Virus record (IMG/VR): IMGVR_UViG_3300020438_000001
Location: 1 to 64,000 of that record
Length of the DNA: 64,000 bases
Source: a virus
Strand: one strand, 5' to 3'
Made by a program: the position numbers and the translations under genes. Positions 4,491 to 34,215 of the stretch are shown in pieces; positions within the stretch are counted from its first letter, which is position 1; every line of letters starts with the position of its first letter. Below the pieces are notes generated by a model. It saw nothing but the letters and a program-made list of their open reading frames with translations, had not been told where the DNA came from and searched no databases.

Positions 4491-4493
4491 ATT

Positions 4494-10679: not shown

Positions 10680-10687
10680 TTAATTAA
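10671..10687 (+). repeat. 17-nt AGTAATTAATTAATTAA motif, copy 2
   Basis: Identical to 6540-6556. Confidence 0.8.
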
Positions 10688-10695
10688 TATATTTG
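10688..10695 (+). promoter_or_regulatory. Candidate TAnnTTTG -7 box
   Basis: TATATTTG ends 5 nt before the ATG at 10701. No clear -33 TTG partner was seen. Confidence 0.25.
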
Positions 10696-10700
10696 CAAAT

Positions 10701-14217: not shown

Positions 14218-17200
14218 CTATTTTAAATCAAACCAGCTAAGCTTATCTTCAGGTTTCGTGTACCATTCCTTACCTGGTAAGATGTTATGGAATCGTTTTA
14301 ATATTTTTGGATCATCTTTCTTATACCTTCCTGCATCTCTTTTATATCTTTCGTAGTCTCCTCCAGTCATTAATGATGATCCGTCACTCATTAACTGACT
14401 AATAAATTTCCAATATGCTTCAATAGTAGTCATGTTTGCTGCAGGTGTTCTTAATATCTCAAAGAATGATGAGGTAGTATAGAAGCCCATTTCAGCTTGT
14501 ACTCTTTTAACGTTGTAGAGCATCTGCCAATCAAGCGCGGTCATATTTGCCGATCCGTCTTCGTCGTCTGGGTCATATCCAAATCCTAGTGAACTTCCTA
14601 ATAGTGTTAGCATAAAGTATCCTACACTTTCACCTAAAGCTCTTCTAATATTCTGTTGCTCAAACTCTTCTAATTTTTTCCACTGCTGTGGTAGAGTTTG
14701 GAATCGCATAGCCATCACTTCTTTCTTTATTCTATTCATAAACTTAAGCGCCGTAACATAATTACCTTCAGTAAATGATTGTAGTCTTTCATTATATTCA
14801 GGCCCTCTAAACTTAGAGTCTTTATTATAAAATAATTTCTCTGCGCCTTGGAATCTACGAAGCATTCCTGGACGTAACCACTTACGGAACTGCATTGCCC
14901 ATCTACCCACTGCATATTGTTGTAAAGCATTTCTGTCTTTAGTATTATATATACCATGGATACGTTGATAAGCCGCAGCTGCTCTTTCAGCAAATAATAT
15001 TCTATCTGTATCACTAAACTGCTCTGCCACTTCAGAATCTAATTCAAGACGACCATCTACTACTGAATATGCATCATATAAATTTACTTCACCTTTAGAT
15101 GTTTTAAATTTAGTATTCAACATCTGAGCAACAGCCATTTGGCTTTGTATTGCATGCTCTCCTAATGACATCATAAAGAATAATGCTGAAGCATTAGTTC
15201 TTAAGCCTAGTTTTCTATGCTCTAATCTATTTCCATATTCATCAAAATGTTGTTGGAAATCAAATAATTCATTTATCATTCCTAATTTCGAACTAGGTTG
15301 TCTAGACATTACATCTTTAGTTAACCCTCCAATACTTGCTGCATAAATCCCAGTAGCTTTTAAGTAATTTCCTACACCGTAGTGCTGATTAGCATACCCT
15401 TCAATAAAACTCATCATTTCACCGAACGTTGCATTAGATAAACCGGCGTGTTTATTCAGTGCCAAGACACGGAAACTTCCTGCCTGTAAGAATGCATCTA
15501 GAGATTGTGCTATATCTATCTCTTTACCCATAATAGTTACTGCTCCCATATCTTTTTTACGTTTACCGTATACTTGCATATCAAAGTAGTCACTTAATCT
15601 AGCATAAGCTCTTGAGTCTTCTCCGGCTACAGTAATATCTTTTCCTATCTGATCTTTCTTAGCTATACCAGATGATAGCTTAGTAACTCTTCTTGTTTTT
15701 ATTAGCTCTTTACCTACTTCAAGTACATCAAGTATCTCTGACATTTCTTTAAAGTTGTTTGCCATAGTAAAGAACATTTTTAAACCAGAACCTAGATCAT
15801 ATGATAAGTCTTCTGGACTTAATTGTCCTTCTTGATTACCAATAGCTCGTGAATAATGTACAGGTACAAAATCTAATGGGTTACCCGCAGCATCTACATA
15901 CTCTCCATAAGAAACATTATCTTCATGTTTTGTAAATGTTTCAGTCCACATTTCTTTAGCTGCATCCTTTAACCTTGTAGGGAACTTTCCTTTTTTCTCT
16001 AAAACTTTCTCCGCAGCTGTAGCTCTTAATGATGGTAATTGAGCTCCTTTTCTATATTGAGTTGGTAAGAGTTTTTGAGCATACATGTAATTTTCTACAT
16101 AGAATTCATAAAACACCCTTCTCGGATCTTCCTTACTCATGTTTGCTATATCTTTAAACTTCTGACTCTGATAATCTTTTGCTTGATTTTCTCTGTAAAA
16201 CTCTTGCCATTCTTCTTTGCTATTACTAAAGTTTTCACTATCCATAAACTCTTGCTTTAACTCTCTCCATCTAACTTCTTGCGCTGTAACAACGTTTCCT
16301 GTATAATTTCCATCAGTGTCTTGTTCTAACATAAAGTCATAAACTTCTCTGTTATTATATAAGTTTACACCATTATCAAACTGATACTTTTCAAGATCCT
16401 TCATAATTTTCATAAGACTTTTCGTAGTCTTAGTACCATACATTAATTCCTGAGTGGCCTGATTTACTTTACCTCTTTGTAATACAATAAGTTTATCCAT
16501 TGTAGCTAGCTCAGTTTGCGTTGAATCTCCTAAAGAGTCTAACCATCTAGCCATAAATGTTATATCTCGACCTGCAGTTAATAATTCTGCTTCTAATTTC
16601 TCTACAGTTACATTAGGATTAGTACTTAATTTAGCTAAAGCTTCTGCTATTAAAGGTCTTCCAAGGGCTTTATACTCTTCATATACTAAATTTTTCTTTG
16701 CAATAGCAGGCATTACATATTTCTCGATCATATTTTCGAAACCAGACTCTACTAACATAGGAGCCATCAATGTAATTTCTTCTAGACTATCATAAGATTT
16801 TACAAACTGATATATTTGATTTAAATTCTTTGGAGTAACTGCATTGTTTCTTACTAGCTCTTTTAATCTACCATGTGCAGCATTTATATCTCTTATTGCA
16901 CGTTTAGTAAATGTAATCAATCCTTCCTTTTCCCCTATTTCATCTAATTCATTATATAACTCTTGTAATTTATCTGAATATTCTTTATTATTAGATTTTT
17001 TATAGAAATCAATCTTTCTTAATATTTGATTTTTAGCGTTTTCAAATACACGGGCTACTGCGTCTTGTTCTTTTTCTATCTTTTTATTTGCCGCATCAAA
17101 CTCAGGGGATATATAACTAATAGCGCTTTTAATTACTTTCTTGCTAATAGGTTTCATATTGTTTAACTTATTTATCACCGGAGTGTTAGAAGTTGCAAGC

Positions 17201-20200
17201 CCAATATTATCAAATGTTATATTTCCATCTATATCCATAGTTACATCTGCTTCTAATGGTACTATATTTATTTCATCTATTGTAATTCCTTTTTCTTCTA
17301 TTATATGTTTATAGAAAGAGAGTTGTAATCTATATTTATTAAGTAAAGTATTAGGTATAGATGCAAGAGCTCCTTTAAATGCAGGTAAAGATTGTTCTAT
17401 ATTTCCAAATTTACCTCTCATTTTTGTTTTAAAGTCATGTATAATTTTTCTACCAGTAGGAGTAATCTCAATAATATCTACTGAACCTGCTAATAGATCT
17501 GATTTATCTGCTACTTTAACTTCTGAGTATAATGTACTTCCATCATTTATCTTAGCTTCTACCCATGCTTTTAAATTAGGTAACGCTTTTTTAAATGCTC
17601 CTCGGTGCTCTTCAGGAACCGCAGCTAAAGCAACTTCATCTGTTTGTTGTTGTACAAGCTGTTCCATTACGTTATGCAAACCAGTTCCCATGTCATCTCT
17701 TAAGAAATCCCACAACTTCTGTACTTTATTTGCCGTGTTAAACACATTACCTTCTTTTCTATTATTAGCTGCTACTTTCTCTGCCATTTCTTGTTGATTA
17801 AATGGATCCTGGAATATCTCAAGTAATCTACTTACTCTGTTCATTTTTACACCGTCTTGAACATAATAGTTATCCTGCTCAGTAGGCGCCATAATCATGT
17901 TACTTTCCCCAATAAGCTGATTCATAGCATCTTTTTGTGAGTAGTTTTTTAAATAAGGTATTTTAGAAGCAGCTAATGCCGTACCTCTTTTAAGTAACTG
18001 CGCTGCTAATCCTGTAATGTTCTGAGTTTGTAATGCATAGTATTTATTTATACCGATGTTTTCTATGCTAAGTCCTCCCGGATTTACACCAGATGTTATT
18101 GCTACTGCTGCAGGTCCTAATACTTCAGATAATTGTGCAGATAAATCATTAGCAGCTGTATTGCCTCCTCTAAAGAAACGTTTAATAGATTCCCATAAGT
18201 TTCTAAGTGTATTCATTAATCCAGATCCACGTACAAACTCAGGTTCTATTCCTAACTCTTGTCCTACAATATATCTACTAAGAACTTTCCCGGCGGCTTC
18301 TTTAATGAACTGCTCGTCTGTAGTATACACTCCCTCATATTCTTTTAGTACATCTTGATAAAGTTTTGTTTGGCTAACTAAATCAAATAGCCTCGTCTTA
18401 AGCGGGCTCTGATCCATCATCTCTATGTAGAAATGGCCTGCTTCTTCTGGTAATGTATACCTATCTCTGCTATTTTGTATTTGTACAACTTTATTTGCCA
18501 TGTCTGCAACACCTATAGCATCAAGGCCTAATTTTTCTTTAAGATTATCATATTTTTCTACTGGTATATTAAAGTGTTCTAATAACCAAGTTTCTAATCT
18601 AGCATCTAAATCTGCTAATATACTTTCTTTAACCACTGGAGATAGTTGCGGCATAATATCATTAATACTTGAAGTACTTCCAGGGTTCTCTTCTTCTGTA
18701 ATATCAGTAATTGTAGGATTAAGTTGTTTCGATGGAGCTGGGTTAAGTACTTTATTTCTTGGATGTACACTCTCTAACATTAAAGTCTCTCCTGCCATTT
18801 CTACATATTTAAACCTTTCACCTAAAGGTTGTATCTCTTCATATATAGCTCCTGTTTTAGAATCTCTTACATGCTTATATAATCTAAACTTTCCTTCATT
18901 AAAAGATTTAAAGTATGATACATATTCATCTACTAGAGGATCCACTGAAGGAACTACTAGATTATTATTAGCATCTTCATGTACAAAGTATTCATTTTGA
19001 GTCATATTTAATGACTTTCTCATATTATCACTAGTTGATAAATTTTTACTGTCTACAGTTTTTAATAAATTACGGTCTGTAAACATGTTTCTTATAATCT
19101 GTTCCGCGGCACCTTCATCAAAATAATTAGCATACCCCATACCTCTTTCTTCTTTTCTAAAGAAGTCTGTTAGTCCTGAAGCACTCCAGTATGACATAGG
19201 TACTAAATCTACAAATGAGTTAGGTCCTAACATAAATCCTGATGTAAGTACAGAGTATCGAACTAAGTCTTGAGCTAAGTTTCTTACTTCTGCTCTTGGG
19301 TCCATAAGTAATTCAGCCCATCTATCTGTTATTTTATTCTTTTGGGCTGGGCTTAATTTTGTTGTATTATTAAATGCTATAGTTTGTAAAAATTGAGCTC
19401 TTCCAGTATTCTCTGCAGAGTTATATAACATACCTAAGAATGGATCATTCTGTAGATTGTACTTCTTTTTGATTCTAATTACATCATTAAGAAGAGATGT
19501 AGGTTTGTTAAACAACTTCTTCTGCAATGCATCTCTTTTATTATATAATAAATCTCCAAATGGTGATGTACGTTTAGTTAATGAATAAAATAATCCAAAA
19601 CTATTTATCACATCAGACAAGTCTGGCGTCATTATACCATCTCTTTGCCCTGTTAATTGTGCAATATTTGTTTTTAATAAGCTAAACCCGGGCCCATTGA
19701 ATGGTACAAACTGTCCTGTAAATTGTTCAGCTGCTTTTATTCCATAATTTATGTATGCATCTATCCTATCAGTAGAGTTTCCAATATTAATAGCTGAAGA
19801 TTCACTGTTTAAATATGTTACAGTATTATTAAACTGTTCTAAAAAGCTAAGCCTACTAAAGTTTTTCAGTGTTTCTGGACTCACAATCATGTTAAACTTC
19901 GATAAATCTCTACCCGCTTGTAAGTATCTTAACATGTCATATAGAATCTGTGTCTGTCTTTTAGCTAATTCTTTATCTGCTAACGTTCCTCCTAAATCCT
20001 TTTTCAAAGAAGCTGCGCTAGGTGTATGTATTGTTTGCTCTCTAAGTAATTCAAATGTATCCAACATCTCATACTTCTTAGCTATATCTTTTGCAATAGC
20101 ATAGTCTGTCTTTTCTTCTTGTAAATTTCTTTCTGCAAAAAATTCTCTTAGTATAGGCTGATTAATAAAATCTAACGCTACACCTTCATTACTAAATCCT

Positions 20201-23200
20201 ATTCTATTTAATAAAGATACAACTCCATTATTATAAACAGTTACTCCGGCTCTACCAATTCTTTGATACTTAGCATTATCTAATGCTTCGTTTTGGTTTT
20301 CAGAAATATAACTTGATATAAATTGTCCATTAAATCCTAGTACTCTACTTAAATTTGTGTGTGACCTCGACCCCTCAGCCTGAATATTAACAGCAAAATC
20401 ATCTTTTAATTTTACATCCATGTCTTGTGCTACTGCGTGACCTGTAGAATGTAATGAAAATAATCCAATCAGTAAAGCCGCATCTTTGTTAATCTTTTCT
20501 AAGTACATGTCAGCAGCTGTAGAGTTGATATTAAGATCAGATAAGTTAGGTACAATTCCTAATTTCTCATACTCTGCTAGTTTTAATGTATATGTATTAC
20601 TATCTAGTGGATCCATTAACTCCTTAACGTGATGCTTAGATGTAATAATAGATTGTCTTATATCGAACAATGCATTTGTTAATGCTTTATCAGATACTCC
20701 AGTAAAATCTTTTTTCGTTTCATATATATCTGCATTAAATGCACTAATCTTTGTTTTAGCTTTAGATATTTCTGGGAACATAAGATACATTTTATCAATA
20801 TCAAAGTCACTACCCATCATTGTAGTTATTTCAGCCGGTAATATAATTACACCTCCCATGTTTTCTGGTAAAACTTTAGTAATCTTAAGAGATAACATAG
20901 AGTTTTTACCCTGTGTAGGAATACGGTAGCCCATAATCTCAAATAATTGCTGGTCTACATTAGAGTCTACAGTATCTCCTGGCTTTAATCCAAGCTTAGC
21001 TGCTAACTCATAAGGTAATGCTACTTCAGCATACACTCCTCCATTAGCATGTTGTCGTATTTCAAGTTGAGAATCTAGTTCGTATCCAAATTCAGCTACC
21101 TGAACCACACTCATACCATTAAATCTTTGCTTAAGAACTCTATTCTTAAATAGGGATAGTAAAATACTTTCAAACCTTTTTGCAAATGGCGGGAAAGATA
21201 GTGGCGCTTCAAATCCATAAGCGTTAACATCGTCTACTAGCTTTTCTATTTTCATAGCTAAGTAATAGTTGTCTGGTAAATCTCTTTCTTCTAGGCTATT
21301 AATAGCTACATCTTTAACTTTTAATAAGAAATCTAATTGAGCTTTATTTCTAGTTTCTAGGTCTGTTGATTGTATAGCCTGCTGATAAGAATCCCATCCA
21401 AGTTCATTGGTTAATGCATCATGAGACCTTTTTATACGCTCTGCATATATTTCATTATATAGATCTTTTATTTGCTTACCATTATACTTACCTCCAAATA
21501 CATTATAATTATAACTATCTAAAATATTTGATAGTATTAGTTTTGCCATCTGTGTTCCGTCTAATGGTGCTTTTGTTTTTGTTTCTATTACTTGAGGAGA
21601 TCTTAAATTTTTAGTTTCTAATATCTCTACATTTAATCCTTCTAGATTAGAAATATTTTCTATACCTGATGCTCCTACTTTAAGGGCAGACTCAAAGTTT
21701 GCCATATCAATAGGTTGTAACCCTTTATATTTACCGACTGCTTCCATACGTTGTCTTAGATTATTTAAGGATACTTGTTCTTCAGTACCTTTAAACATTT
21801 CAGTAAACTCTCTTATTAAAGGAATCGTCGAATGCTTTATTTGTTCAAACGTTATAGTTTGATTGCCCTGAGAATCTGTTATAAGTCTTTCTCCAAAGTA
21901 ATATGTCTTTCTAGGATTTAATAATAATTTTTTAGATGCTGGGTCTCCCATTAATCCTTTTACCCAATATTTATTATACGCATCAGTATGCTCATCAGTC
22001 CAGGTTCCATCTGACTCCATTAAATTTTTATGGAATTCTAAAGTAGTAAACCCTTGTGCATCAGTCTTGTTAATTTTTGTATATGCATTAGCAATTCTTT
22101 TTGCTTCCTTTGTTTCTGTGCCTGCATTTTCTAATATTTTTTGGAACCTTGCTGTATCACCATCTTTAAATATATCTTCTAAAATAGTGTGAGTGAATTT
22201 AGGCTTAAGTCCATACTGCTTCTGCTCATTCCATACCGGCTCAAGTCCAGGAGTAATTGATTGATAAGCTCTTTTTCCTGCTTCTATAATTGGATTACCT
22301 GTGTCATCAGTTTTATAGTATGCTAAATCAGGACCAAATGTAGTTTGCATATAAGTTTTATATACTAAATCATTAACCGCAAATCTAGTTATAGCTGTAG
22401 TTATATCATTGTTTATTATATCTCCACGTAATGCAGACATAGGCAAAGACTCATTAGTTATAGAAGATCCAGTTACATTAATTGCTCCTGCTTCTGCAAA
22501 TGCTGTTATAGTTTGCTGAACATTATCTTGTAAGTACTTTAATAACCCTTCTTTTAATCCAACTCTAAGCTCTTCAATCTGAGCCATACTAGAAGCATTA
22601 ACACCTTTTCTTATAAGCCCTCCTTGATTAAATATTTTATACTTAGGGTCATTTAGTTGTGGGAATTGTATAAATCTAGTTCCATTACCTTGTTGGTCTC
22701 CTGGTTTATTTTTATAGTGTACATTCTGTCTTTGTTCTGATAATGCAATAGGATTAAATCCTGATAATTGATCATTAGTCTTAGCTATTCTAGCCATTTC
22801 ACCAAGGGCTGCAGGCATTAATAGTTCAACTCCAGTTTCATACCAACCATCTAGTCCAGTCTTACCGGATTTCCATAAACCTAATGCAGCATTTTCAGGC
22901 CCTATCTTTGGTAAGCTTAAGAATTTCCATTGTGTTTTATCTCCTTTAGTACCTGTATTAAATTCTCCATACTTAAATCCATTATTATAGAACATTGCAA
23001 ATCTAGATATTGCAGATAGTTTCTGATTCATAGTATCATATGCATTAGATCTACTAGCTGCATTCTTTTCTTTAACAACATCAAATGTACTTAAGGCAAA
23101 ATTAGCTCTTACTTCAGGATTATTAAATAATAAATCTAAGATTAAATGTCTGTATTTTTCTGTAGGACTATAGAACACATCATTATATCTCGATAAAATA

Positions 23201-26200
23201 GCAGCTTCATAAGTTTCTTCCGAGCTTAGTTCTAATGTAGTCTTAGAATCATATGTATTTAAATTAATTGCATAGATAGGTTTTTTGTTACCGCTCATAA
23301 ATGATGCGATGTAATTGTCTATAGTATAATCTACAGCAAGTTCTGCTAGATTTTTAAGCGCTGCAGACTCCATATTACCAGCCATATATGGGCTTATCCC
23401 ACTTTCTAATGCTCTTAGTATTCCGGCTCCGAATGAATTAGTACCTCTCATGTACTGTTCTAGGTCTATTGCTCTTACCGTTTCATCATTATAAATACCT
23501 TCCCATACTACATTATCGAATTTAATACCTACCATATCTAGGGTATCCTTCATGATTCTTAAGTACTGCCCTTTATGTTCTTGGTTTGTAAGATCTCCCT
23601 GGTTTTTTAATAAAGGTAATAGTTTATCATAAGATTGTCTTATTTTTTCTACTTCAGTTAAATCTATTAAATCATTTTCTCCATTTTCTTCTTGGAATAC
23701 TGGACTTTCTAATCTATTAGAATTCCATATATTAATAATTTGATTCTTTAATCCATTTCTATTTGTAAGGATTGTTCTAGTTTCTCCGTTCTCATCTAGT
23801 AATAGAGTTTTAAACTGGATATTTTGTTTATTGAAATGCGCAACAAATTTATTCTGCCATTGTGGAGATGATGCTGCGTATACTGTTAATACTTCACTAG
23901 CCATAGGGTGGCCTTTTTCTGCTAGCTTTTCTAATCTATTTAATACATTACCGCCAGGTGTATTAGCTAACGCTACAGACAGATATGCATACACCTCATC
24001 AAATGGTAAATATCTATTAGACCCTAAAAACTTTCCTTTTTCGGATTTAATAAAACCTAATTCAATTTTAATATCTTTAGATAATGTAGGCTTAGTTGAG
24101 CTATGATAATAATTAACTCCATGTATACGCTCTTTACTTTGCTCTTCATTTAAAGCTACTTGTTCATCTAAAGATACATCATCATTAGCTTCAATCTCAG
24201 TAGTTGTTTCTTCTACAAACGGAACAGTCTCTGTATCAATTTTACCATCTCGCTTTATTTTATACTTTATACCAAATTGATTGTCTAATGCTTTAACTGC
24301 TAAGCTTTCAAACCCGGGGCTAACTAAATTATCTAAATCATCTGTTCTATCTTTCCAGTTATTTTCTTGGGCTACTAACATAAAGTTATTACCTATTTTT
24401 CTAAGTGTCTCATTCTCAGATTGTTGTAATCTTTCTCCTGTTTCTATAAAACCTTGTTGTAACTTAGAGTAAGTAGATTTCATAAGTTTAGGGTCTTTCA
24501 TTACCTCTAACCACTTATCTCCATACTCTTCTTGTAATTTATTTTTTAGATTATAGTTCATAACCCCTACAATTTCATCAACTTGTTCTACTGTAAATCC
24601 AGTTTTCTCACGGAGTAAAGGTGCTTGTACTTGAGACTGTAATGCTGCATCTTCTTGAGGTAATATAAAATCTCTGTTAGTAATATCTCTAAACAAAGTT
24701 TCTATTGCAGAACTCATTCCTAACATATTCTTTATGTAATAAAGTAGTTCTTTAAAGAATTTTTTAATTGTAGAACCTAATCCTGACTCGTCTTCTGTAA
24801 GCCTATAGTTCATAAACTCTTCAGCTAAACGAGTTTCAATATCCGCTTCTTGTCCGTATTTATTTATAGCCTCCATCTCTATAGAAGTTTTTTCTTCAGG
24901 TGTTAGATGTAGATCATATATACGACGGAAAGCTTCCCAATACATAGTTCCTGTAGGAGCATTCTCTGCAACAGTAACCATGCCTCTATGATAATAACCA
25001 AAAGCTTGTCTACCATCTTTTAATGTTATATATTTTAATCTGTTTAGAACAGTAAGACCCTCTTCTCCAAATCTAGATAGAAACCACTGCTTTTCTATAT
25101 CGCTTATTAAATCAACAGCTCCTTCTAAATCTTCATATTTTCTAAACTTTATATCTATATCTTCATCAAGTTTATTTGGATCAATCTCTTCTATTGTATC
25201 AGTTGTAGTATCAGTAATCTCTGTACTACTTTCGTCTCCAAACACATCAGTAACTCTTTGTACTTCAGGCTCGTCTACAAGTATATCAACATTTTGACCT
25301 AACACTTCTCGAGCTTCTTCTTGCTCTGCTTCTATAATAATTTCCGGTGTACCTATAACTTCTACACCTTCATTTATAAAGTCTGGCATTTGATTTTTAA
25401 CTGGAGTTCCTTCTTCTATATATATCTTAGCATGATGAAACTTCTGAGAACTTCCTCCTGGAACATCAGTTGTAACAATACCCATTTCAGATAAATAAGT
25501 ATTATAATCTTTAAAAGATTCATTTTGTAGTGGACTAAAATATTCTTGCTTAGAATTAATTAAATGTTTTTGAACATTAAATACTTTTGTTGCTAAGTAA
25601 TCTCTAATGATTGTTGGGATCTGACCGAACTGAGAAATGTCTTCGCTTCTTCTAAGCTCATGAGATATTACATTTCCTTGAGAATCATATTCTTTAAATA
25701 AGAAAGGCTTACCATCCATAGCATCTTGGAAATTATTTCTCATCTTATCTCCAAGACCCTCCATATTATACTGTATACCAATTACTCTATTTGTTCCTGG
25801 AATAGGTATTTTAACTACTAGATTATCCATAGCTAATATACGTTTACTATTGGCCTGTTTAAATGTTTGATCTTGTCTAGCTCCTACTGGAGTATATACA
25901 ATTTTATTTACTAACTCTCTTTTCTCTTTAGGAGCTACTCCTTGCATTTTAATAATCTCTATTACTTTATCTATAGCTTTTTCTGTAAGTAATGAAGTCT
26001 CTGCTCTTACTGGAACCATTTGTCCGTTAGCAGACTCTAACGCTATATAGACTCTTCCTTGCTCAATATAAGATGTAGGAGAAACACTTACATCACTGTT
26101 ATTATATCTAACAGTTTGATCTTGCCCTACACCTATAATCATGTCACCGCTAATAGGACGTTGTATAGATTTACCATCTTTTTTAATATTAATTACATAC

Positions 26201-29200
26201 CCAGAAGTCTTTCCTGCTATCGTAGCTGTAACATCTTTAGTTCCCATTGCAGCAATCCTTGTTCTAAATGCACGGCTTTGTGCAGTTTTTTTACTTAGAA
26301 CAGATAAAACTTTACTCGGGTCAGATGCTAATCTTACAGTAACTACCACATCGCCTGATTGGCTAGATGGATAGTATTTATATTCTGGTTCAATTCGTAA
26401 GATGACTTTTGTACCTACTCCTAAATCTGGACTATTTAATAGTTTAAAATCAAATAAATCTTTTTCTTTTACGGCATCAGGAACTACTATTAATACTTGT
26501 TGCTCTCCTTTAACTTGTTTCTTTTGGTAATCCCATCCTTGCCAAGGTGCCATTTTACTTTCTTCTACTATTCTTCCTCCTTCGTAAATAGGTTTATCGT
26601 TTACTAATAATGGCGGATTATAATATACAAGTTGTACTCTATCATTACTTTCATCTTCTAATTGCTGCAACTCAGTTGGAGTAAGTTCTGTAATATCTTT
26701 AAAATAAAAACCTCCTTTCTTTCCCGGTGCAGTCCACATTGGTATAAGCATACCATCTTTATCTTTAGCCTGAGTAAATTTACCATTAGGCCCTACTACA
26801 CTTATTACTTGTGGTTGAAAGAATTCAAGGTAAGCTTTTTGTAAAGCAGGTTGAGTCTGTGTAGTAGCTCCAGGTACAGTAACTATAGATCCCTCTTCTT
26901 CTTTGACTGTTTTTCCTGATTGCGGATCCTCAGTAGCTTCGATAATAGCATTTTGCTCTTCGATAGCAGAGACCGCATCTGGGTTTTCGACTGTTGGTAT
27001 TTCTCCTTCATTAGTTATTTCTTCGATTTGACCCTGATTAACTTCTATTGATTCTCCGAGGACATCAATAAGCTCTCCTTGTTCTGTTATTTCTAACTTT
27101 GATTGGGAGGCGTTTGGCCCGGCTTCGCTCGTTCTATTTTCTGCATTGAGTTCAGCGGTAATCCTTTCCTCAGTTTTCGCAGGGTCTTCACTCTGCTCCA
27201 CTTGTCCTTCGCTAAAAGCGTTTTCTGTAAGTCTAGGGGCAGCAGCCGGTTTAGTTGAGTTAGCTTCATTGTATTTATTTTTAATATTATTAATTGTTTC
27301 TTGTATAGCATTTGATAACTGTATATTAGCTTGTCTTCTTACAGCTACAGACTCCGTCCCTTCTACAAGGGCTCCATCAATATCTTTAACAACTAAAGAG
27401 CCATCAAACAGATCTGTCTCATAAGTGACTATATATTCGTTACCGTTTTGTTCTATTATTAAGAAATCATTATTAACTAGATTTCTAAACGCAGTTCTTT
27501 TAACCGCTTCTAAGGTTTCAATAACATCTGCAATCTCATAAGTAACCAAAGGATTTGTAAATGTAACTTTTTTACCATTCCATTTAGTTAATGTAACTGA
27601 TACAACACTACCACTTGCGTCATATTCAATAGCATCTACTGGATTATCTGATAGATTATTAAAGTATTCATTATTAATGTTGAATGTTTTACCATCTGCA
27701 TTTATTTCTATGCCTAGTAAATCATCTCTTCTAAGTAACATATCTAGAGACCCTAATGTAGGCCCCTGTGTAAATTGCCCTAAAGCATTTCTATATCTTG
27801 AATCATGAGCTGATGGACTTTCATCTACAATATATTCTGTAAGAGTAGTTCCATCTCGGAATATTAGTTCATTTGTTTCAGCATCTCTATAAATAGATCC
27901 AACTTTATTCCCCCAAACAACTCCTACAGTTTGTATTACTTCATCAAACAATTCAGAGATAGGCATGTTAATACTCTCAGCATCACCATAAAGATAAGCA
28001 GTACTTCTTCCTTGAGTCTCTCTCCACTCCTGTTCCATCTTAGCACGCTTTGCCGCATCTCTTCTGCTAAGTTTTGGATTAAAAAGTTCTTTCTTAAGCT
28101 CTTCTATTTTACGGCCTATCTCATCATTAATCTCTTTTCTAGCTTGCTCTGCTAAGTTTTTTAAATTAGTTTTATTTTCTTCATAGGATTTTTGAATTGA
28201 TTGTTCTTCTTTAGCGTTTCTAAAAGCCTCTATAAATTCATTATAAAATTCTTGTATTTTTATATTGTCTGGATACTGAGCAAAAAATTCTGTAACTTGC
28301 TCTTCAGTCATTTCAGGATTCTTTTTTACAGCCTCCTTAAAATCCTCTATAATACCATTGTTTTCAGCTTCTTCTTTAATACGTTCTTTACCTACTACTG
28401 CTATATCGCCTAATGCTTCTGCTTCTGAACTATTAGAATAATAAGGATTCTCCTCTTTTAATAAATCTTGTAATCTATTCCAAGCTGCATCTCTATTCCA
28501 AGTAAATAATTGCTTTTTATTTTGCAGTGTAACAAGACTACCTTTATCAACTTTACTTAAGAAGTCATTCTCTGCTCTTAGGTCTTTATCTTCATATGTC
28601 TCTTCAGAAGCTTTCTTTAATACATTTTCTTCTGTTTCATTTCTAGCAATTAGATCCTGTAAGTTATTTATATATTGATTAAAGTTTTCTGCTAATGCTT
28701 TAGACTTTTCTTTCTCTTCTTTTGTTGCGGTTGTATCGTTTGCTACATCTTCTGCTCTTTCTTTTGCAAGCTCAAATTTACTAAGCTGATCTTGTAATGA
28801 TCTTTTCTTTAATTGCAGTTCATGTCTTTGTTTTGTATTAGGCCCAATATTATATTGCTCAACATTATAAATATCATCATTAATATTTTGTTCTATCTGT
28901 TGATCTATTTCTTTAATGAGCTTATCATACATAGTAACACTCATATCTAACTCTGTAAGAGCTCCCGCAACACCTGCTCCCCATTTAGAACTTGTTGCTC
29001 TATTTCTATAATTATTAAATTTCTTTTCAGTAGTTCTTAAGATGTTTATTAAATCTGCTTTTCTTGTAGCTAATTCAGACTCAGATTGTCCTGTTTCTTT
29101 TAGCATATCAGTAAATGCGGGATCATTCATCATCTCTTCTAGCTGATCCATATTTCCGGCTTGTGCTGAATTAAGCGCTAGCTGTAATGCCATAAGCTCA

Positions 29201-30780
29201 TCTTGCTCTCTTGCTCCTTGTACGTCACCATTTTCTATAGCCTTTCTTCTTTTTTCTAAAGATTTTTGTATAAGATCGGCTCTTCCTCCTATCTCTTTCA
29301 GTCTAGCCTGATCTAAAGCTGCTTGAGCTTTTCTATTTTTTATTGTTGCTACACCACTAAAAATACCCCCTCCTATAGTACCCATTGTAGTAGCCGCCCA
29401 AAAATCTCCTCTAGATGCATAATCATTCATACGATTAACCCAGCTTGACCCAGACATAAACTCTCTGTTTTCATAGCCAGTATTACCCATCATTATATCT
29501 CCAAGGCGTATACCTTCTTGCATACTCATAAAGTTAATCTGCTCTTCTATACCTTCTGAGTAAGCCCATAATGCTGGAGGTATAACAGGTTTAATATAAT
29601 TGTAAGCTTTGCCTATTCTTGTCTTAGGAACTTTAGGCGCTTTAAGTGTAGCATTTTGAGCTTTTTGTACTTTAGTTGAATGTCTACCAAATATGTTTGC
29701 TCCTGGACGAGTACTAAATTTCATTGGACCAAACCATAATCCTGCTTGAAGTATATCAAATCCAACATTACTCCAGTTTAGACTATAAGAATTAGATGCA
29801 GCCTGTCCTGCAACATGATTTGCTATTTTATCTTTTGCATAAGGATCGCCAGCTTTAATACCTAACTCTTTTAAAATAGCTTCACCATTTGAAGAGTTTA
29901 TAAAATTATCAAAATTCTTAGGATCTTGTAAGTAGTCCAAATTCTTTTGGAATGAATGATCCCATGTTTCTCCAGCCTCTCTAAAGTTTTCCATATGCCT
30001 CATAGAAATACCCATAGCCATAGAGTTTCTTACGAAGTTAGTAGCTCTACCAGCAGTCAATGCTCCTTGTAGTTTACGTGAAGCATTTGCTACCATCGCA
30101 CTTCTAGAACCTTTACCCGCTCCTGCTAAATATCTCATCCCTCTACCCATATAAGCAGCTCCTCTAGCTGCAACCATACCCGGAATAAGTAAGGATAGTG
30201 TAGATGCAACAGACACTCCATTTGATGCCCACCATCCTGAATCATAAGGGTCCCATCCTCTACCTGGATTTTCCTGGTATATAGGTGTAAACTCTTTTGT
30301 AGCTTCTCTTATATCTCCACCTAAATCAGTTAACCAATTTTGAAAGTCACTTTCCCAAGGCATTTTACCCATAAACATACCACCAATAGCATCTCCTAAT
30401 GCGCCAAAACCTTCTAATGTTCCACCTCCAACCTCACCTATAATAGCTTGATTTAAAAATCCTCCAAGCTGTTGCATACCTGATTGTTCGCTGGCTCTTC
30501 TACTATTTATATTATGTATATTTTCTATATCCCAATTAACATCAGGCATAGCATTATAGTCCGCCTCAAATACAGTAGGTGTTTGAAACCTTTGATTTGA
30601 GTTTGCTTGCGTATATCTAATAACATCTAATGAGTTTTCAATATCTAAAGGATACTGTACAGCATCTTCATTGCTTGGTAATTGTGGACCGCTTTCATCT
30701 TGTGGTAAAGCAGTAATTGGATTTAATGTAGTATTCATCTTTGCTATATCCAAAGATGAGCCTTTTTTAGGTTCTCCCAT
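14218..30780 (-). CDS. Giant (5520 aa) putative virion-delivered polyvalent protein containing a beta-prime-like RNAP barrel and a RecB-like nuclease
   Basis: Uninterrupted 16.5-kb ORF. It has a Gly-rich hydrophobic N-terminal region, a long charged helical region, acidic linkers, the RNAP DPBB motifs (aa 3211-3337) and PD-(D/E)XK motifs (aa 4303-4495). Confidence 0.85.
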   Translation of the reverse strand: MGEPKKGSSLDIAKMNTTLNPITALPQDESGPQLPSNEDAVQYPLDIENSLDVIRYTQANSNQRFQTPTVFEADYNAMPDVNWDIENIHNINSRRASEQSGMQQLGGFLNQAIIGEVGGGTLEGFGALGDAIGGMFMGKMPWESDFQNWLTDLGGDIREATKEFTPIYQENPGRGWDPYDSGWWASNGVSVASTLSLLIPGMVAARGAAYMGRGMRYLAGAGKGSRSAMVANASRKLQGALTAGRATNFVRNSMAMGISMRHMENFREAGETWDHSFQKNLDYLQDPKNFDNFINSSNGEAILKELGIKAGDPYAKDKIANHVAGQAASNSYSLNWSNVGFDILQAGLWFGPMKFSTRPGANIFGRHSTKVQKAQNATLKAPKVPKTRIGKAYNYIKPVIPPALWAYSEGIEEQINFMSMQEGIRLGDIMMGNTGYENREFMSGSSWVNRMNDYASRGDFWAATTMGTIGGGIFSGVATIKNRKAQAALDQARLKEIGGRADLIQKSLEKRRKAIENGDVQGAREQDELMALQLALNSAQAGNMDQLEEMMNDPAFTDMLKETGQSESELATRKADLINILRTTEKKFNNYRNRATSSKWGAGVAGALTELDMSVTMYDKLIKEIDQQIEQNINDDIYNVEQYNIGPNTKQRHELQLKKRSLQDQLSKFELAKERAEDVANDTTATKEEKEKSKALAENFNQYINNLQDLIARNETEENVLKKASEETYEDKDLRAENDFLSKVDKGSLVTLQNKKQLFTWNRDAAWNRLQDLLKEENPYYSNSSEAEALGDIAVVGKERIKEEAENNGIIEDFKEAVKKNPEMTEEQVTEFFAQYPDNIKIQEFYNEFIEAFRNAKEEQSIQKSYEENKTNLKNLAEQARKEINDEIGRKIEELKKELFNPKLSRRDAAKRAKMEQEWRETQGRSTAYLYGDAESINMPISELFDEVIQTVGVVWGNKVGSIYRDAETNELIFRDGTTLTEYIVDESPSAHDSRYRNALGQFTQGPTLGSLDMLLRRDDLLGIEINADGKTFNINNEYFNNLSDNPVDAIEYDASGSVVSVTLTKWNGKKVTFTNPLVTYEIADVIETLEAVKRTAFRNLVNNDFLIIEQNGNEYIVTYETDLFDGSLVVKDIDGALVEGTESVAVRRQANIQLSNAIQETINNIKNKYNEANSTKPAAAPRLTENAFSEGQVEQSEDPAKTEERITAELNAENRTSEAGPNASQSKLEITEQGELIDVLGESIEVNQGQIEEITNEGEIPTVENPDAVSAIEEQNAIIEATEDPQSGKTVKEEEGSIVTVPGATTQTQPALQKAYLEFFQPQVISVVGPNGKFTQAKDKDGMLIPMWTAPGKKGGFYFKDITELTPTELQQLEDESNDRVQLVYYNPPLLVNDKPIYEGGRIVEESKMAPWQGWDYQKKQVKGEQQVLIVVPDAVKEKDLFDFKLLNSPDLGVGTKVILRIEPEYKYYPSSQSGDVVVTVRLASDPSKVLSVLSKKTAQSRAFRTRIAAMGTKDVTATIAGKTSGYVINIKKDGKSIQRPISGDMIIGVGQDQTVRYNNSDVSVSPTSYIEQGRVYIALESANGQMVPVRAETSLLTEKAIDKVIEIIKMQGVAPKEKRELVNKIVYTPVGARQDQTFKQANSKRILAMDNLVVKIPIPGTNRVIGIQYNMEGLGDKMRNNFQDAMDGKPFLFKEYDSQGNVISHELRRSEDISQFGQIPTIIRDYLATKVFNVQKHLINSKQEYFSPLQNESFKDYNTYLSEMGIVTTDVPGGSSQKFHHAKIYIEEGTPVKNQMPDFINEGVEVIGTPEIIIEAEQEEAREVLGQNVDILVDEPEVQRVTDVFGDESSTEITDTTTDTIEEIDPNKLDEDIDIKFRKYEDLEGAVDLISDIEKQWFLSRFGEEGLTVLNRLKYITLKDGRQAFGYYHRGMVTVAENAPTGTMYWEAFRRIYDLHLTPEEKTSIEMEAINKYGQEADIETRLAEEFMNYRLTEDESGLGSTIKKFFKELLYYIKNMLGMSSAIETLFRDITNRDFILPQEDAALQSQVQAPLLREKTGFTVEQVDEIVGVMNYNLKNKLQEEYGDKWLEVMKDPKLMKSTYSKLQQGFIETGERLQQSENETLRKIGNNFMLVAQENNWKDRTDDLDNLVSPGFESLAVKALDNQFGIKYKIKRDGKIDTETVPFVEETTTEIEANDDVSLDEQVALNEEQSKERIHGVNYYHSSTKPTLSKDIKIELGFIKSEKGKFLGSNRYLPFDEVYAYLSVALANTPGGNVLNRLEKLAEKGHPMASEVLTVYAASSPQWQNKFVAHFNKQNIQFKTLLLDENGETRTILTNRNGLKNQIINIWNSNRLESPVFQEENGENDLIDLTEVEKIRQSYDKLLPLLKNQGDLTNQEHKGQYLRIMKDTLDMVGIKFDNVVWEGIYNDETVRAIDLEQYMRGTNSFGAGILRALESGISPYMAGNMESAALKNLAELAVDYTIDNYIASFMSGNKKPIYAINLNTYDSKTTLELSSEETYEAAILSRYNDVFYSPTEKYRHLILDLLFNNPEVRANFALSTFDVVKEKNAASRSNAYDTMNQKLSAISRFAMFYNNGFKYGEFNTGTKGDKTQWKFLSLPKIGPENAALGLWKSGKTGLDGWYETGVELLMPAALGEMARIAKTNDQLSGFNPIALSEQRQNVHYKNKPGDQQGNGTRFIQFPQLNDPKYKIFNQGGLIRKGVNASSMAQIEELRVGLKEGLLKYLQDNVQQTITAFAEAGAINVTGSSITNESLPMSALRGDIINNDITTAITRFAVNDLVYKTYMQTTFGPDLAYYKTDDTGNPIIEAGKRAYQSITPGLEPVWNEQKQYGLKPKFTHTILEDIFKDGDTARFQKILENAGTETKEAKRIANAYTKINKTDAQGFTTLEFHKNLMESDGTWTDEHTDAYNKYWVKGLMGDPASKKLLLNPRKTYYFGERLITDSQGNQTITFEQIKHSTIPLIREFTEMFKGTEEQVSLNNLRQRMEAVGKYKGLQPIDMANFESALKVGASGIENISNLEGLNVEILETKNLRSPQVIETKTKAPLDGTQMAKLILSNILDSYNYNVFGGKYNGKQIKDLYNEIYAERIKRSHDALTNELGWDSYQQAIQSTDLETRNKAQLDFLLKVKDVAINSLEERDLPDNYYLAMKIEKLVDDVNAYGFEAPLSFPPFAKRFESILLSLFKNRVLKQRFNGMSVVQVAEFGYELDSQLEIRQHANGGVYAEVALPYELAAKLGLKPGDTVDSNVDQQLFEIMGYRIPTQGKNSMLSLKITKVLPENMGGVIILPAEITTMMGSDFDIDKMYLMFPEISKAKTKISAFNADIYETKKDFTGVSDKALTNALFDIRQSIITSKHHVKELMDPLDSNTYTLKLAEYEKLGIVPNLSDLNINSTAADMYLEKINKDAALLIGLFSLHSTGHAVAQDMDVKLKDDFAVNIQAEGSRSHTNLSRVLGFNGQFISSYISENQNEALDNAKYQRIGRAGVTVYNNGVVSLLNRIGFSNEGVALDFINQPILREFFAERNLQEEKTDYAIAKDIAKKYEMLDTFELLREQTIHTPSAASLKKDLGGTLADKELAKRQTQILYDMLRYLQAGRDLSKFNMIVSPETLKNFSRLSFLEQFNNTVTYLNSESSAINIGNSTDRIDAYINYGIKAAEQFTGQFVPFNGPGFSLLKTNIAQLTGQRDGIMTPDLSDVINSFGLFYSLTKRTSPFGDLLYNKRDALQKKLFNKPTSLLNDVIRIKKKYNLQNDPFLGMLYNSAENTGRAQFLQTIAFNNTTKLSPAQKNKITDRWAELLMDPRAEVRNLAQDLVRYSVLTSGFMLGPNSFVDLVPMSYWSASGLTDFFRKEERGMGYANYFDEGAAEQIIRNMFTDRNLLKTVDSKNLSTSDNMRKSLNMTQNEYFVHEDANNNLVVPSVDPLVDEYVSYFKSFNEGKFRLYKHVRDSKTGAIYEEIQPLGERFKYVEMAGETLMLESVHPRNKVLNPAPSKQLNPTITDITEEENPGSTSSINDIMPQLSPVVKESILADLDARLETWLLEHFNIPVEKYDNLKEKLGLDAIGVADMANKVVQIQNSRDRYTLPEEAGHFYIEMMDQSPLKTRLFDLVSQTKLYQDVLKEYEGVYTTDEQFIKEAAGKVLSRYIVGQELGIEPEFVRGSGLMNTLRNLWESIKRFFRGGNTAANDLSAQLSEVLGPAAVAITSGVNPGGLSIENIGINKYYALQTQNITGLAAQLLKRGTALAASKIPYLKNYSQKDAMNQLIGESNMIMAPTEQDNYYVQDGVKMNRVSRLLEIFQDPFNQQEMAEKVAANNRKEGNVFNTANKVQKLWDFLRDDMGTGLHNVMEQLVQQQTDEVALAAVPEEHRGAFKKALPNLKAWVEAKINDGSTLYSEVKVADKSDLLAGSVDIIEITPTGRKIIHDFKTKMRGKFGNIEQSLPAFKGALASIPNTLLNKYRLQLSFYKHIIEEKGITIDEINIVPLEADVTMDIDGNITFDNIGLATSNTPVINKLNNMKPISKKVIKSAISYISPEFDAANKKIEKEQDAVARVFENAKNQILRKIDFYKKSNNKEYSDKLQELYNELDEIGEKEGLITFTKRAIRDINAAHGRLKELVRNNAVTPKNLNQIYQFVKSYDSLEEITLMAPMLVESGFENMIEKYVMPAIAKKNLVYEEYKALGRPLIAEALAKLSTNPNVTVEKLEAELLTAGRDITFMARWLDSLGDSTQTELATMDKLIVLQRGKVNQATQELMYGTKTTKSLMKIMKDLEKYQFDNGVNLYNNREVYDFMLEQDTDGNYTGNVVTAQEVRWRELKQEFMDSENFSNSKEEWQEFYRENQAKDYQSQKFKDIANMSKEDPRRVFYEFYVENYMYAQKLLPTQYRKGAQLPSLRATAAEKVLEKKGKFPTRLKDAAKEMWTETFTKHEDNVSYGEYVDAAGNPLDFVPVHYSRAIGNQEGQLSPEDLSYDLGSGLKMFFTMANNFKEMSEILDVLEVGKELIKTRRVTKLSSGIAKKDQIGKDITVAGEDSRAYARLSDYFDMQVYGKRKKDMGAVTIMGKEIDIAQSLDAFLQAGSFRVLALNKHAGLSNATFGEMMSFIEGYANQHYGVGNYLKATGIYAASIGGLTKDVMSRQPSSKLGMINELFDFQQHFDEYGNRLEHRKLGLRTNASALFFMMSLGEHAIQSQMAVAQMLNTKFKTSKGEVNLYDAYSVVDGRLELDSEVAEQFSDTDRILFAERAAAAYQRIHGIYNTKDRNALQQYAVGRWAMQFRKWLRPGMLRRFQGAEKLFYNKDSKFRGPEYNERLQSFTEGNYVTALKFMNRIKKEVMAMRFQTLPQQWKKLEEFEQQNIRRALGESVGYFMLTLLGSSLGFGYDPDDEDGSANMTALDWQMLYNVKRVQAEMGFYTTSSFFEILRTPAANMTTIEAYWKFISQLMSDGSSLMTGGDYERYKRDAGRYKKDDPKILKRFHNILPGKEWYTKPEDKLSWFDLK
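17290..17875 (-). other. RecB-family PD-(D/E)XK nuclease domain inside the 5520-aa ORF (aa about 4303-4495)
   Basis: MGTGLHNVMEQL, AGSVDIIEI (Asp 4435, nt 17476-17478), IIHDFKTK (D-x-K at aa 4449-4451, nt 17428-17436) and RLQLSFYKH (QxxxY). Confidence 0.7.
20770..21150 (-). other. Beta-prime-type double-psi beta-barrel (RNAP catalytic) segment inside the 5520-aa ORF (aa 3211-3337)
   Basis: FKNRVLKQRFNGMSVVQV, then VALPYELAAKLGL, then YRIPTQGKNSML, then MMGSDFDIDKMYLMFPE. These are collinear with E. coli beta-prime GKRVDYSGRSVI, GLPKKMALELF, NRAPTLHRLG and NADFDGDQMAVHVPL. DFDID is encoded at nt 20794-20808. Confidence 0.75.
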
Positions 30781-30808: not shown

Positions 30809-33800
30809 TTACCATGACGGATAAACCGCTGGCGTTTCTGTTCTAAATTCTCCTGCTGACCAATGCCACCATTCTTCATCGAATTGTCTTATTGGTTGTA
30901 AGTCTTCACCTCTAATACCAGTATTACGTGGCGAAGATAGTGAATTATATACAGACGTTAATTGGTTCTTTAAGAAATTTTCAAATAGTAACGAACCATT
31001 AGATTTTAATTCTGATATTCTTACACCTCTTTGAGTTCCGGTTTTACCTTCACCTGTATTTTTTGTTCCTATAGTAGTAACTGAATTAGATCCTACGGAC
31101 GCAATATTCTCTGATGTAGTTAATATTAAGTCATAGTCACCTTTAGTTTGGCTAAGATCGATAGCTTGACCCATAACATGGAATCCTCCTACATTCGGAT
31201 TTGCTATAGGATCGCCTTTTCTGCCTCCATCTACCCAAGCAGTATATTTATTCAACTGTTCTTGATAAGTTCTGTTAGAATTATTAATAGGAATAGCTGC
31301 GCCATTATACATACCGTTTCCATTTACCCAATTTAGTGTAATGTCTCCACTTACTATTGCAGCCTGTACTGTAGTCTCTGTTCCATCAGAAAGAATTACC
31401 GGAGTATCTTTATACTCTTCTCCTAATTTATCAGCAACCATCTCAAGTGTGTCTCTTGACTTACTACTATAATCCAGTTCAGCAGTCATTACTTGATTTG
31501 CAAACTTAATATTTGTTCCTAATAATCCATGATTAGTCGTACCAAATAACATGTTCTTTTCTATTCTGTCTCCTGAATAAGATGTTTGTCCGGGGCTTAA
31601 TTTAGTTGAATATGGCATTCCGGTTATATCTATTTCTCTAGCTTCTGAAGTCTCAGTAACTGGAGCGTTTTGTACAGCTATAGGATAGTTTCCTGTAGGC
31701 TTGTTCTCTGACATATGGTTCTTCCAGAACTCTAATGAACCAGAGAATTGAGGAGAATTTAATGCAATTAATTGCGATAACTGACTAGCTTCTATATCTG
31801 TTGGGAATAGTTCCTGTCCAGTAGTGTATTCATAAGATCCGTCTGGATTTATAGCTGCTACTAAACCTGCTTGCGGTCTAAATAAAAACTCACTATTAAC
31901 TATAGGAGTTCCTTCAGGAGTTTGGTTAAAGTAATACATACCTAACATTCTTCCATCACCGTCTCTATACATACTTGGAGCAACGTTTCCATTAATTGTT
32001 GCCGCTGATTGTATATCCATTTGAGCTGCAAAATTATTATTAAATACCATCTTCTCTGTAGGAGTAGTTGCTCTTGTATACTTTAAACCCTCCTCATCAT
32101 AATCTTCAGTTAAACTTAACCAAGACTGTTTTAATTCAGTAGGAGCATCAAAGTATAATGTCATTGTTGTATTTTCAGCGTCAGCACCATCTGTTGGTAT
32201 ACTAATCATACCTTTATAGTTACCTGTACTTGGATCAGGTACAGTAGTCCAAACAATAGGTAATTCATCATCTATAATATATTCTTCTACTACCTCATCT
32301 TTAATTATCTCATTCTCCATTAATGTATTAAGACTTACTTCTTGGCCTTCACTATTAGTAAATAAGAAGTCATCTTTAATAAAATTAGACTGCATTGCTT
32401 TAGTTACATCTGCATCTAGGCTCTTACTTAAAGTTGTATTCCAAGTAGGTAGCTTAGCGCTTCTACCTCCATACCATCCCTCCGTACCAAAGTTTTCTAC
32501 ATTCGACTTCATAGCATTAAATAGATCTCCTTCCGGATTATTAAGATATGATATAAATCCTTCGCTATAATCATATCCTAGATGTTGTGTAGTTAAAGAC
32601 TTTTGGCCATCCCAATCTCCCATATTTACAGGAAATCCTTTGTCATCAAACTCAACAAGATTATATCCTCTATTAGTATATCTTGGTGATCCTATTTGAA
32701 CTGTTTTCTTTTGACCGTTTCCATCAACATACTCAATTAAATCAGGGAATCCAGGAGGTCCTCCTATTCTTCTCATCTGCATACCATTTGCAGTTTCTTG
32801 TATTAGATTCTTCTGTGAGAATGCAGCTGCCTCATATTGATATTTAGCTCTTGCTATTTCATCTTGTTTAGCTCGATGCATTTCCTCATCCATAGTTCCC
32901 TGCTCTTTCAATAACTCATATTCATTTAATGTTGCTTCATAAGTTTTCTTTCTATCAACAACTAATGAATTAAAGTCTTGTATAGGCTGTCCTCCAGTCT
33001 GTATTGGAGTACTAGGATCATCTACTTTATGAGGTTTAGCATATGACACTACCGGTGTACTTCCTACTATTACAGGAACCCAGTCTGTCTTAGGAGCTCT
33101 TCCTTTATTTTTATTCTTTTCTAGCACCGACTGATCCCAGGTTAAGCTATCAAATACATCTGACATTAGGAATTTCTCACCCATAGCTCCTACATAATTT
33201 GTTTTAGCAAGGTCATAAGCACTTCCAGTTAAACCATTATCATCATTTAATGATGATATAGCCTCATTTCTTTGAGCTAGTCTAGAATTAATAGCTTCTT
33301 GTTGGTCTTCATTAGGGTTATTTCCATACATCCCTCGTATATCCTCTTCACTACCAAACATATTATCTATAGCATTAGTAGCTGCTCCTAATACCATTTC
33401 GTCATCCATTCTATATTTAACAACATAATCTAATTCATTCTTGAATCCATCACTTAAGTATTGTTTATTTTGATGGGCTGCTTGATATAATTTAGATAAC
33501 GTTATACTCTTCTGCTCTTTAGTAACTTTAGCTCCAGTTCGTGCATTTTCTTGAATAATTTTATCTATATCTGGTTTAACATATTTAAAGATATTTTCAT
33601 TAGCTTCTGCTAACTCGTCTACTTTTGGATGTAATCCAGTATATTTAAATGGTTTTAATCTACCCTCAGTTCCATAAATACCTCTAGAATCGTCAGTAAG
33701 ATTCCATGATAAGTCTTCATTTTGACCATCTGTACCAGTTCTGTACCACCCTTGCCAGTTACCTTCAGTAGCTAATACAGGATTAAAATCATCATCATAA

Positions 33801-34204: not shown

Positions 34205-34215
34205 TTTTTATTTTT

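Follow-up and report, generated by a model that had tools for sequence, protein, structure and literature searches.

A probable crAss-type two-barrel RNA polymerase within a 5520-residue fused protein of a marine crassvirus

The first 64,000 nucleotides (nt) of the IMG/VR virus record IMGVR_UViG_3300020438_000001, the whole stretch that we analysed and call the window, carry a giant open reading frame (ORF) on the minus strand, at 14218..30780, encoding a protein of 5520 amino acids (aa) and ~623 kDa. A first-pass annotation, made from the sequence alone, had singled out aa 3211-3337 of this ORF (nt 20770-21150) as matching the catalytic double-psi beta-barrel (DPBB) of the RNA polymerase (RNAP) beta-prime subunit. 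We consider it very probable that this stretch is the catalytic, beta-prime-like DPBB of a crAss-type single-chain, two-barrel DNA-dependent RNAP, an orthologue of gp66 of phage phi14:2, which lies here within a gp67-gp66-gp65 fusion. The conclusion brings together homology, fold, retained invariant active-site residues, the collinearity of three modules and a crassvirus genome context. In phi14:2, gp66 is packaged in the virion and transcribes the early genes, and each Asp of its DFDID motif is essential (Drobysheva et al., bioRxiv 10.1101/2020.03.07.982082).

Homology to the phi14:2 polymerase

Translated, the flagged stretch reads FKNRVLKQRFNGMSVVQV ... YAEVALPYELAAKLGL ... MGYRIPTQGKNSMLSL ... 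LPAEITTMMGSDFDIDKMYLMFPE, and our translation reproduced all that had been reported of it: the ORF and its strand, the motifs, the placement of the Asp triad and the spacing of 39 residues between R-x-P-T and the first Asp (R3286 to D3325). The catalytic triad, DFDID, is read directly from the sequence at aa 3325-3329 (nt 20794-20808, minus strand) and is the same as gp66 1361-DFDID-1365; it fits the motif of the gp66 family, DFDxD with either Ile or Val in fourth place. The E. coli beta-prime residue numbers used for comparison in the first-pass annotation are adopted as given there.

Support for the identity of the polymerase comes decisively from gp66. When all PDB sequences were searched with phmmer, the sole match was the gp66 structure 6VR4 (E=3e-25), in an alignment of aa 2865-3354 with gp66 933-1404 in which both proteins read GSDFDIDKMY at the active site. 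BLASTP aligned phi14:2 g066 612-1382 to aa 2563-3346 at E=1e-35, and a family profile built from 18 sequences matched 6VR4 at E=7e-112, covering gp66 808-2194. A profile search against Pfam, as proposed in the first-pass annotation, gave a sub-threshold match to RNA_pol_Rpb1_2 (PF00623) at aa ~3261-3346 and profile positions 81-161 of 166 (E=0.0015-0.0019, 18.9-19.2 bits); the matched stretch corresponds to the part of the beta-prime barrel that bears NADFDGD. The Pfam match, which falls on exactly the flagged motifs, also speaks against a chance likeness, but it is the gp66 homology that decides the assignment.

The same homology extends through a large family. A word-indexed homologue search with aa 2550-3750 gave a single protein, and an exhaustive search of representative sequences was used instead, yielding 2494 homologous clusters at E<=1e-3 in which the motif is conserved. 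By BLASTP, phmmer, the family profile and these representative homologues, the gp66-like core with direct sequence homology spans aa 2563-3557 (nt 20110..23094, minus strand). In a tblastn search of 50,697 phage genomes, 114 records were matched, mostly crAss-like and all at less than 60% identity (24-29% among the matches listed).

With cellular beta-prime and Rpb1, as with QDE-1 and YonO, the protein shares the two-barrel catalytic architecture and the DxDxD Mg site. Two features of the cellular enzymes are absent, however: the fourth position of the motif is Ile instead of the Gly of NADFDGD, and both barrels lie in one ORF, whereas the cellular barrels belong to separate subunits. Judged by its sequence, the polymerase would work like beta-prime, yet it is no member of the PF00623 family.

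Predicted structure and anatomy of the polymerase

An AlphaFold2 model was made for aa 2840-3640, with a predicted local distance difference test (pLDDT) of 82.4 and a predicted template modelling score (pTM) of 0.78. Compared with the PDB by Foldseek, it retrieved 6VR4 at E=1.5e-29 and a query template modelling score (TMq) of 0.71, while the weaker matches listed (E 0.01-0.1) were nearly all largest subunits of RNAPs (bacterial beta-prime, Rpb1, archaeal A', and those of vaccinia virus and African swine fever virus), along with the non-virion RNAPs of phiKZ and AR9. A structure search of BFVD gave 53 matches at E<=1e-3, and all the named ones are giant proteins of crAss-like or related phages. 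The first barrel, modelled separately, reached a pLDDT of 76.8 and had 6VR4 as its sole match (E=7e-10); its assignment as a DPBB follows from the gp66 crystal structure. The proposal of a Mg-binding DPBB in a single-chain crAss-type two-barrel RNAP is thereby borne out by sequence, profile and predicted structure alike.

We mapped the elements of the polymerase by combining published gp66 landmarks (Connector 1095-1238, DFDID 1361-1365, bridge helix 1529-1559 and trigger loop 1598-1636; Drobysheva et al., bioRxiv 10.1101/2020.03.07.982082) with the phmmer alignment to gp66. All elements lie on the minus strand. The first, beta-like barrel (DPBB-1) occupies about aa 2865-3043 (nt 21652..22188), aligns to gp66 933-1094, immediately ahead of the gp66 Connector, and bears the invariant residues D2907 (in TDAQ), K2958, K2982 and K3034. 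The first-pass annotation had named two tentative candidates for this partner barrel, and one of them, INKTDAQGF (aa 2903-2911), falls inside DPBB-1 and holds D2907; the other, SGNKKPIYAIN (aa 2496), lies outside it. A mostly helical Connector follows at about aa 3044-3190 (nt 21211..21651), matching gp66 1095-1238, with helices at model residues 262-336 and the invariant Q3077 and K3080. The second, beta-prime-like catalytic barrel (DPBB-2), at about aa 3191-3345 (nt 20746..21210), is supported by the RNA_pol_Rpb1_2 match, the model strands at 383-495 and the invariant residues from R3286 to K3330 listed below.

Beyond the catalytic barrel, the model predicts a helix of 31 residues at aa 3421-3451 (nt 20428..20520; model helix 582-612), and from its length and its place in the order of elements we infer that it is the equivalent of the gp66 bridge helix. 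The trigger-loop region follows at about aa 3452-3510 (nt 20251..20427) and includes a conserved ALDNAK, a site at which the family consensus is AVDAxKxP; here phmmer aligns aa 3486-3557 to gp66 1597-1667.

Every residue that is invariant in the family alignment is kept: D2907, K2958, K2982, K3034, Q3077, K3080, R3286, P3288, K3292, G3323, D3325, F3326, D3327, D3329 and K3330. In two-barrel polymerases, two metal ions are bound by one Asp of barrel 1 and three Asp of barrel 2, and two Lys of barrel 1 hold the product (PMC9508822). By analogy, D2907 and two of the three invariant barrel-1 lysines (K2958, K2982 and K3034) are plausible equivalents of those residues.

Taken as a whole, the module resembles gp66 in being a single chain with two DPBBs and a connector, in carrying GSDFDIDKMY with Ile at the fourth position, in the order of bridge helix and trigger loop, and in its position at the end of the structural block, beside gp65-like and gp67-like sequence. 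It differs in its low identity to gp66 (~25%) and in its setting, as gp66 is a separate protein of 2180 aa and its counterpart here makes up the central third of a fused chain of 5520 aa. The first ~600 aa of gp66 have no detectable likeness here, and a degenerate zincin-like module precedes the core instead.

Several observations weigh against this reading. The RNA_pol_Rpb1_2 score of ~19 bits lies under the gathering cut-off of 25.3 bits. Of the structures proposed for comparison, gp66 was matched, but QDE-1 is not among the top 50 Foldseek matches listed, and the barrel-1-only model gives no match to cellular beta or Rpb2. By BLASTP and phmmer, gp66 1-611, including the self-inhibitory element 196-233 that blocks the cleft, has no detectable similarity in the giant ORF. 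Packaging, ejection, cleavage and activity would all be carried over by homology at ~25% identity, and cleavage is the weakest link of the proposed course, both candidate processing modules being without a canonical HExxH in this lineage.

Two rival explanations bear on these points. The low Pfam score, taken alone, might suggest that a large low-complexity protein has come to resemble beta-prime in these motifs by chance, an explanation whose probability we put close to nil, as it is refuted by the gp66 homology at E=3e-25 and 7e-112, by the TM of 0.71 and by the 2494 homologues that conserve the motif. The extreme divergence from gp66 could likewise be read as the mark of an inactive pseudo-enzyme, derived from an RNAP and kept as cargo, as a structural or ejection protein or as a channel scaffold. 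This too is very improbable, if somewhat less so: gp66 is active with an identical DFDID motif (bioRxiv 10.1101/2020.03.07.982082), all family-invariant active-site residues are kept, and a dead virion RNAP (vRNAP) would demand another route for early transcription.

Fusion with gp67-like and gp65-like modules

In phi14:2, the tandem genes g067, g066 and g065 encode 1797, 2180 and 1421 aa and add up to 5398 aa, not far from the 5520 aa of the giant ORF. A gp67-like N-terminal module at aa 1-560 (nt 29101..30780, minus strand) is Gly-rich and hydrophobic, then coiled-coil-like, and belongs to a wider N-terminal block that runs to about aa 1880. Direct phmmer and BLASTP comparisons of phi14:2 g067 with the N-terminus of the giant ORF gave no significant match; jackhmmer started from aa 1-560 reached g067 27-520 at E=1.5e-66 (query aa 48-552) by way of the N-termini of about 70 giant homologues. 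At the other end, a gp65-like C-terminal module at aa 4862-5467 (nt 14380..16197, minus strand) matches g065 748-1374 by phmmer (E=3.4e-30) and BLASTP (E=2.8e-32), and gp15 of cr118_1 at E=9e-20. With the ORF listing and the translation, these collinear matches to g067, g066 and g065 identify the giant ORF as a fused gp67-like, gp66-like (vRNAP) and gp65-like polyprotein, in which, on the sequence evidence, the putative polymerase module is ~aa 1880-4040, joined in frame to the gp67-like module upstream and the gp65-like module downstream.

The gp65-like part also contains a predicted PD-(D/E)XK (RecB-like) nuclease domain at aa ~4360-4520 (nt 17221..17703, minus strand). Profile matches to it are weak (Pfam PDDEXK_1, E=0.022; phrog_1674 exonuclease, E=0.0033); its motifs are intact (D4435, D4450-F-K4452 and Q4486xxxY4490) and are conserved across 9 homologues. 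The place of this domain varies widely in other family members, some having it ahead of the RNAP and others behind it. One short RNAP homologue in the family alignment bears an ART-PolyVal ADP-ribosyltransferase domain (Pfam E=6e-06). RNAP cargo proteins appear to acquire effector domains of polyvalent proteins.

The giant ORF is well supported as a real gene. An unbroken frame of 16.5 kb at a window G+C of 34% is strong evidence that it is coding. The identical 5520-aa protein is present on 6 public contigs, the longest of 93 kb, and its 90%-identity cluster holds five further members from NCBI and ENA assemblies, also of 5520 aa, together with a sixth, a 1145-aa Tara Oceans fragment. The recurrence of the same length in these cluster members argues that the long ORF is no assembly artefact. 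A 166-aa ORF that runs antisense within the giant gene (window 18500-19000, plus strand) is probably spurious.

On a related JGI contig, L002, the homologue is called as three genes, with breaks at 3093 (L002) and about 7690-7710 and with AAAAA where AAAAAA keeps the frame. The RNAP there seemed to be split between its barrels in the manner of beta and beta-prime, a candidate that we rejected once the breaks proved to be a TGA in frame and an A-run that is one base short. The breaks are probably assembly errors, and recoding or slippage may also account for them.

Such fusions are a known feature of this virus group. In some phages the three RNAP-associated proteins are fused into one polyprotein (bioRxiv 10.1101/2020.03.07.982082, section 8, citing Yutin 2018), and giant multidomain proteins of the transcription block, with PDDEXK domains inside them, are a signature of crAss-like phages (Yutin et al. 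2021). Among the best 150 of the 2494 clusters, 30 combine a gp67-like N-terminus, the RNAP and a gp65-like C-terminus in one protein, 43 have the gp67-like N-terminus and the RNAP only, and 17 reach a length of at least 5000 aa (the longest, 6538 aa). The first-pass annotation had implied that a motif some 3300 aa deep in a larger fusion was a novelty; with 30 triple fusions and 17 proteins of that size, neither the depth of the motif nor the size of the protein is unusual. Fused RNAPs of this kind have been described before and are frequent in metagenomes, and the present protein is a divergent member of a well-described class.

Several of these fused proteins offer close comparisons. RNAP ORFs of RefSeq crassviruses include those of cr118_1 (gp14, 4946 aa, Suoliviridae; DFDID at aa 3209) and cr52_1 (gp34, 4464 aa), and they share with the present protein and with two metagenomic homologues, P0002 (5542 aa) and P0003 (5731 aa), the succession of a gp67-like N-terminus, an HExxH module and then the RNAP. 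DFDID lies at about aa 3200-3470 in these four proteins. P0002 and P0003 are collinear with the giant ORF from end to end, the PD-(D/E)XK domain and the gp65-like part included, whereas cr118_1 and cr52_1 encode the gp65-like protein in a gene of its own downstream and have an intact HExxH (HEAFH). The present lineage differs from those two in being marine instead of from the gut, in the fusion of all three modules and in its degenerate HExxH.

Degenerate zincin-like modules at the junctions

By jackhmmer, the family has two paralogous HExxH (zincin-like) modules, one directly ahead of the RNAP part and the other where the gp65-like part begins, the second copy being present in many homologues. 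In the giant ORF, copy 1 lies at the start of the gp66-like part, at aa 1880-2060 (nt 24601..25143, minus strand), and reads YWEAFRR at aa 1947-1953 (nt 24922-24942). Copy 2, at aa 4040-4230 (nt 18091..18663, minus strand), opens the gp65-like part and reads PEEAGH at aa 4111-4116 (nt 18433-18450). Neither has the zinc-binding HExxH motif: both His are gone from copy 1 (WEAFR) and the first His from copy 2 (EEAGH), and there is no HExxH anywhere in the 5520-aa ORF. Pfam scans of the two modules gave nothing significant. Across the family, GTxYHEAFH is conserved in copy 1 of most homologues, with WEAFR in the giant ORF, P0001, P0002 and P0005 and WEAMR in P0003 and P0093 (YWEAMRR); in the column of copy 2, phi14:2 gp65 has HEIMH and most homologues HExxH. 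As judged by sequence, the loss of canonical zinc ligands from the two modules at the junctions, in a polyprotein that is fully fused, is lineage-specific and may be a new detail.

This loss gives substance to a further rival, in which the RNAP module is the same and the zincin-like modules are dead in this lineage, the 623-kDa protein either remaining unprocessed (packaged, ejected and active as one chain) or being cut by an unrelated protease. In its favour, WEAFR stands in place of HEAFH with both His ligands lost and EEAGH has lost its first His, where most homologues keep HExxH, and the loss is common to the closest relatives (P0002, P0003, P0001 and P0005), hence no sequencing error. Against it, both copies retain the catalytic Glu, several distant lineages also have EExxH in copy 2, a recurrence that suggests a kept function, and a further metallopeptidase motif is found elsewhere in the window, in an ORF of 3677 aa (described below). 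A role of zincin-like modules as processing protease is itself only suggested in the literature for crassviruses (bioRxiv 10.1101/2020.03.07.982082), and Pfam recognises neither module, points that also tell against this rival. On balance we judge it unlikely, with a chance that is small but well above that of the other two.

Of similarly low probability is the bolder form, that the RNAP is packaged, ejected and active as an uncleaved chain of ~623 kDa with a working PD-(D/E)XK nuclease in it as well, or alternatively is matured by a different mechanism. What raises it is that the lineage in which all three proteins are fused is also the one in which zinc ligands are missing from both junction HExxH modules. 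If it were true that the chain stays uncleaved, it would be among the largest single-chain polymerase-bearing proteins known.

Genome context

Muzzle and ring genes, together with shared synteny, identify the window as belonging to a marine crassvirus. Pfam matches in the window comprise crAss_MUZ (E=9.7e-146), CrAss_Ring_1 (6e-55), CrAss_Ring_2 (4e-37) and CrAss_Ring_3_4 (7e-22). The muzzle protein, of 1835 aa, is encoded at 37588..43095 (minus strand), matches crAss_MUZ_C (1.7e-14) in addition to crAss_MUZ, and is homologous to phi14:2 g071. Between it and the giant ORF, at 30809..37533 (minus strand), lie two ORFs of 1131 and 1105 aa which have no Pfam match and which, by synteny, occupy the place where crassviruses encode the cargo proteins C1 and C2. 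Upstream of the giant ORF and on the same strand, the order is ring 3/4, ring 2, ring 1, muzzle and these two ORFs. The succession of muzzle, two ORFs and giant ORF recurs in contigs L005/L006 and in gp44-gp50 of PhiCrAss001, and a Tara Oceans scaffold and a second ENA assembly show this synteny around a 60%-identical homologue of 5542 aa.

The parallel with PhiCrAss001, in which the three RNAP-associated proteins are capsid cargo (Bayfield et al. 2023), lies in where the genes stand, behind the muzzle and a pair of smaller cargo genes, and in a similar total mass (~694 kDa for gp47, gp49 and gp50 versus 623 kDa). There the three are separate proteins; here they form one chain, for which a role as capsid cargo and ejection ahead of the DNA would be expected by analogy.

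The giant ORF converges on a plus-strand replication block with PolA, helicases, Sak4, primase, rIIA, rIIB and exonuclease VIII. The rIIA-like and rIIB-like genes (window 8217-11711, plus strand; PHROG E=4e-65 and 4e-42) are also found as a pair on the Tara Oceans relative. No tRNAs were found, nor a terminator at the convergent junction, and a megablast comparison of 24 kb of the window with phage genomes gave no match.

A crAss-type major capsid protein, portal and TerL were not recognised among the window ORFs searched. The first-pass annotation had taken a 328-aa ORF (window 61925-62911, minus strand) for a putative capsid gene that does not obviously look crAss-like. The ORF has no Pfam or PHROG match, and the muzzle and ring proteins mark the genome as that of a crassvirus. 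It sits among tail genes, between a ring protein gene and ORFs for collagen-like tail fibres, and a capsid role is without support; the true capsid gene is probably outside the window.

Two other ORFs of the tail-gene block deserve mention. A second giant ORF, of 3677 aa (window 48210-59243, minus strand), lies among tail and ring genes; its first 3000 aa are unmatched in the 50,697 phage genomes and it has no PHROG match, while aa 2388-2435 carry a matrixin-type metallopeptidase signature (Pfam Peptidase_M10, 27.5 bits, over the cut-off). Its product may be an enzyme or a fibre associated with the tail. The ORF at 45002-46144 (minus strand), which lies between this ORF and the ring protein genes, combines a NUMOD-like DNA-binding domain with a metallophosphatase-type repair exonuclease (phrog_704, E=2e-58).

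Discussion

The course that we propose for this protein is modelled on phi14:2 and PhiCrAss001. It would be synthesized late and then packaged in the capsid as cargo, and would leave through the tail and muzzle in a partly unfolded state, before the DNA is ejected. In the cell it would refold, probably after cleavage into modules, the step on which the degenerate HExxH motifs cast most doubt. D3325, D3327 and D3329, probably with D2907 of barrel 1, would bind Mg2+, and the invariant barrel-1 lysines should hold the nucleoside triphosphate and the 3' end of the RNA. The two-barrel site, assigned by homology, would then transcribe the early genes in a Mg-dependent, rifampicin-insensitive manner and independently of the host RNAP.

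Knowledge of two-barrel RNAPs as such is unchanged by this case. The question that it raises is how, and whether, polyproteins with degenerate HExxH modules are processed. For the virus itself, an uncultured marine crassvirus, the largest gene now has an assigned function, and the mapped active-site residues (the catalytic triad, D2907 and the three barrel-1 lysines) and module borders are useful for the design of constructs. For the family, the fully fused gp67-gp66-gp65 form is seen to be widespread outside the gut.

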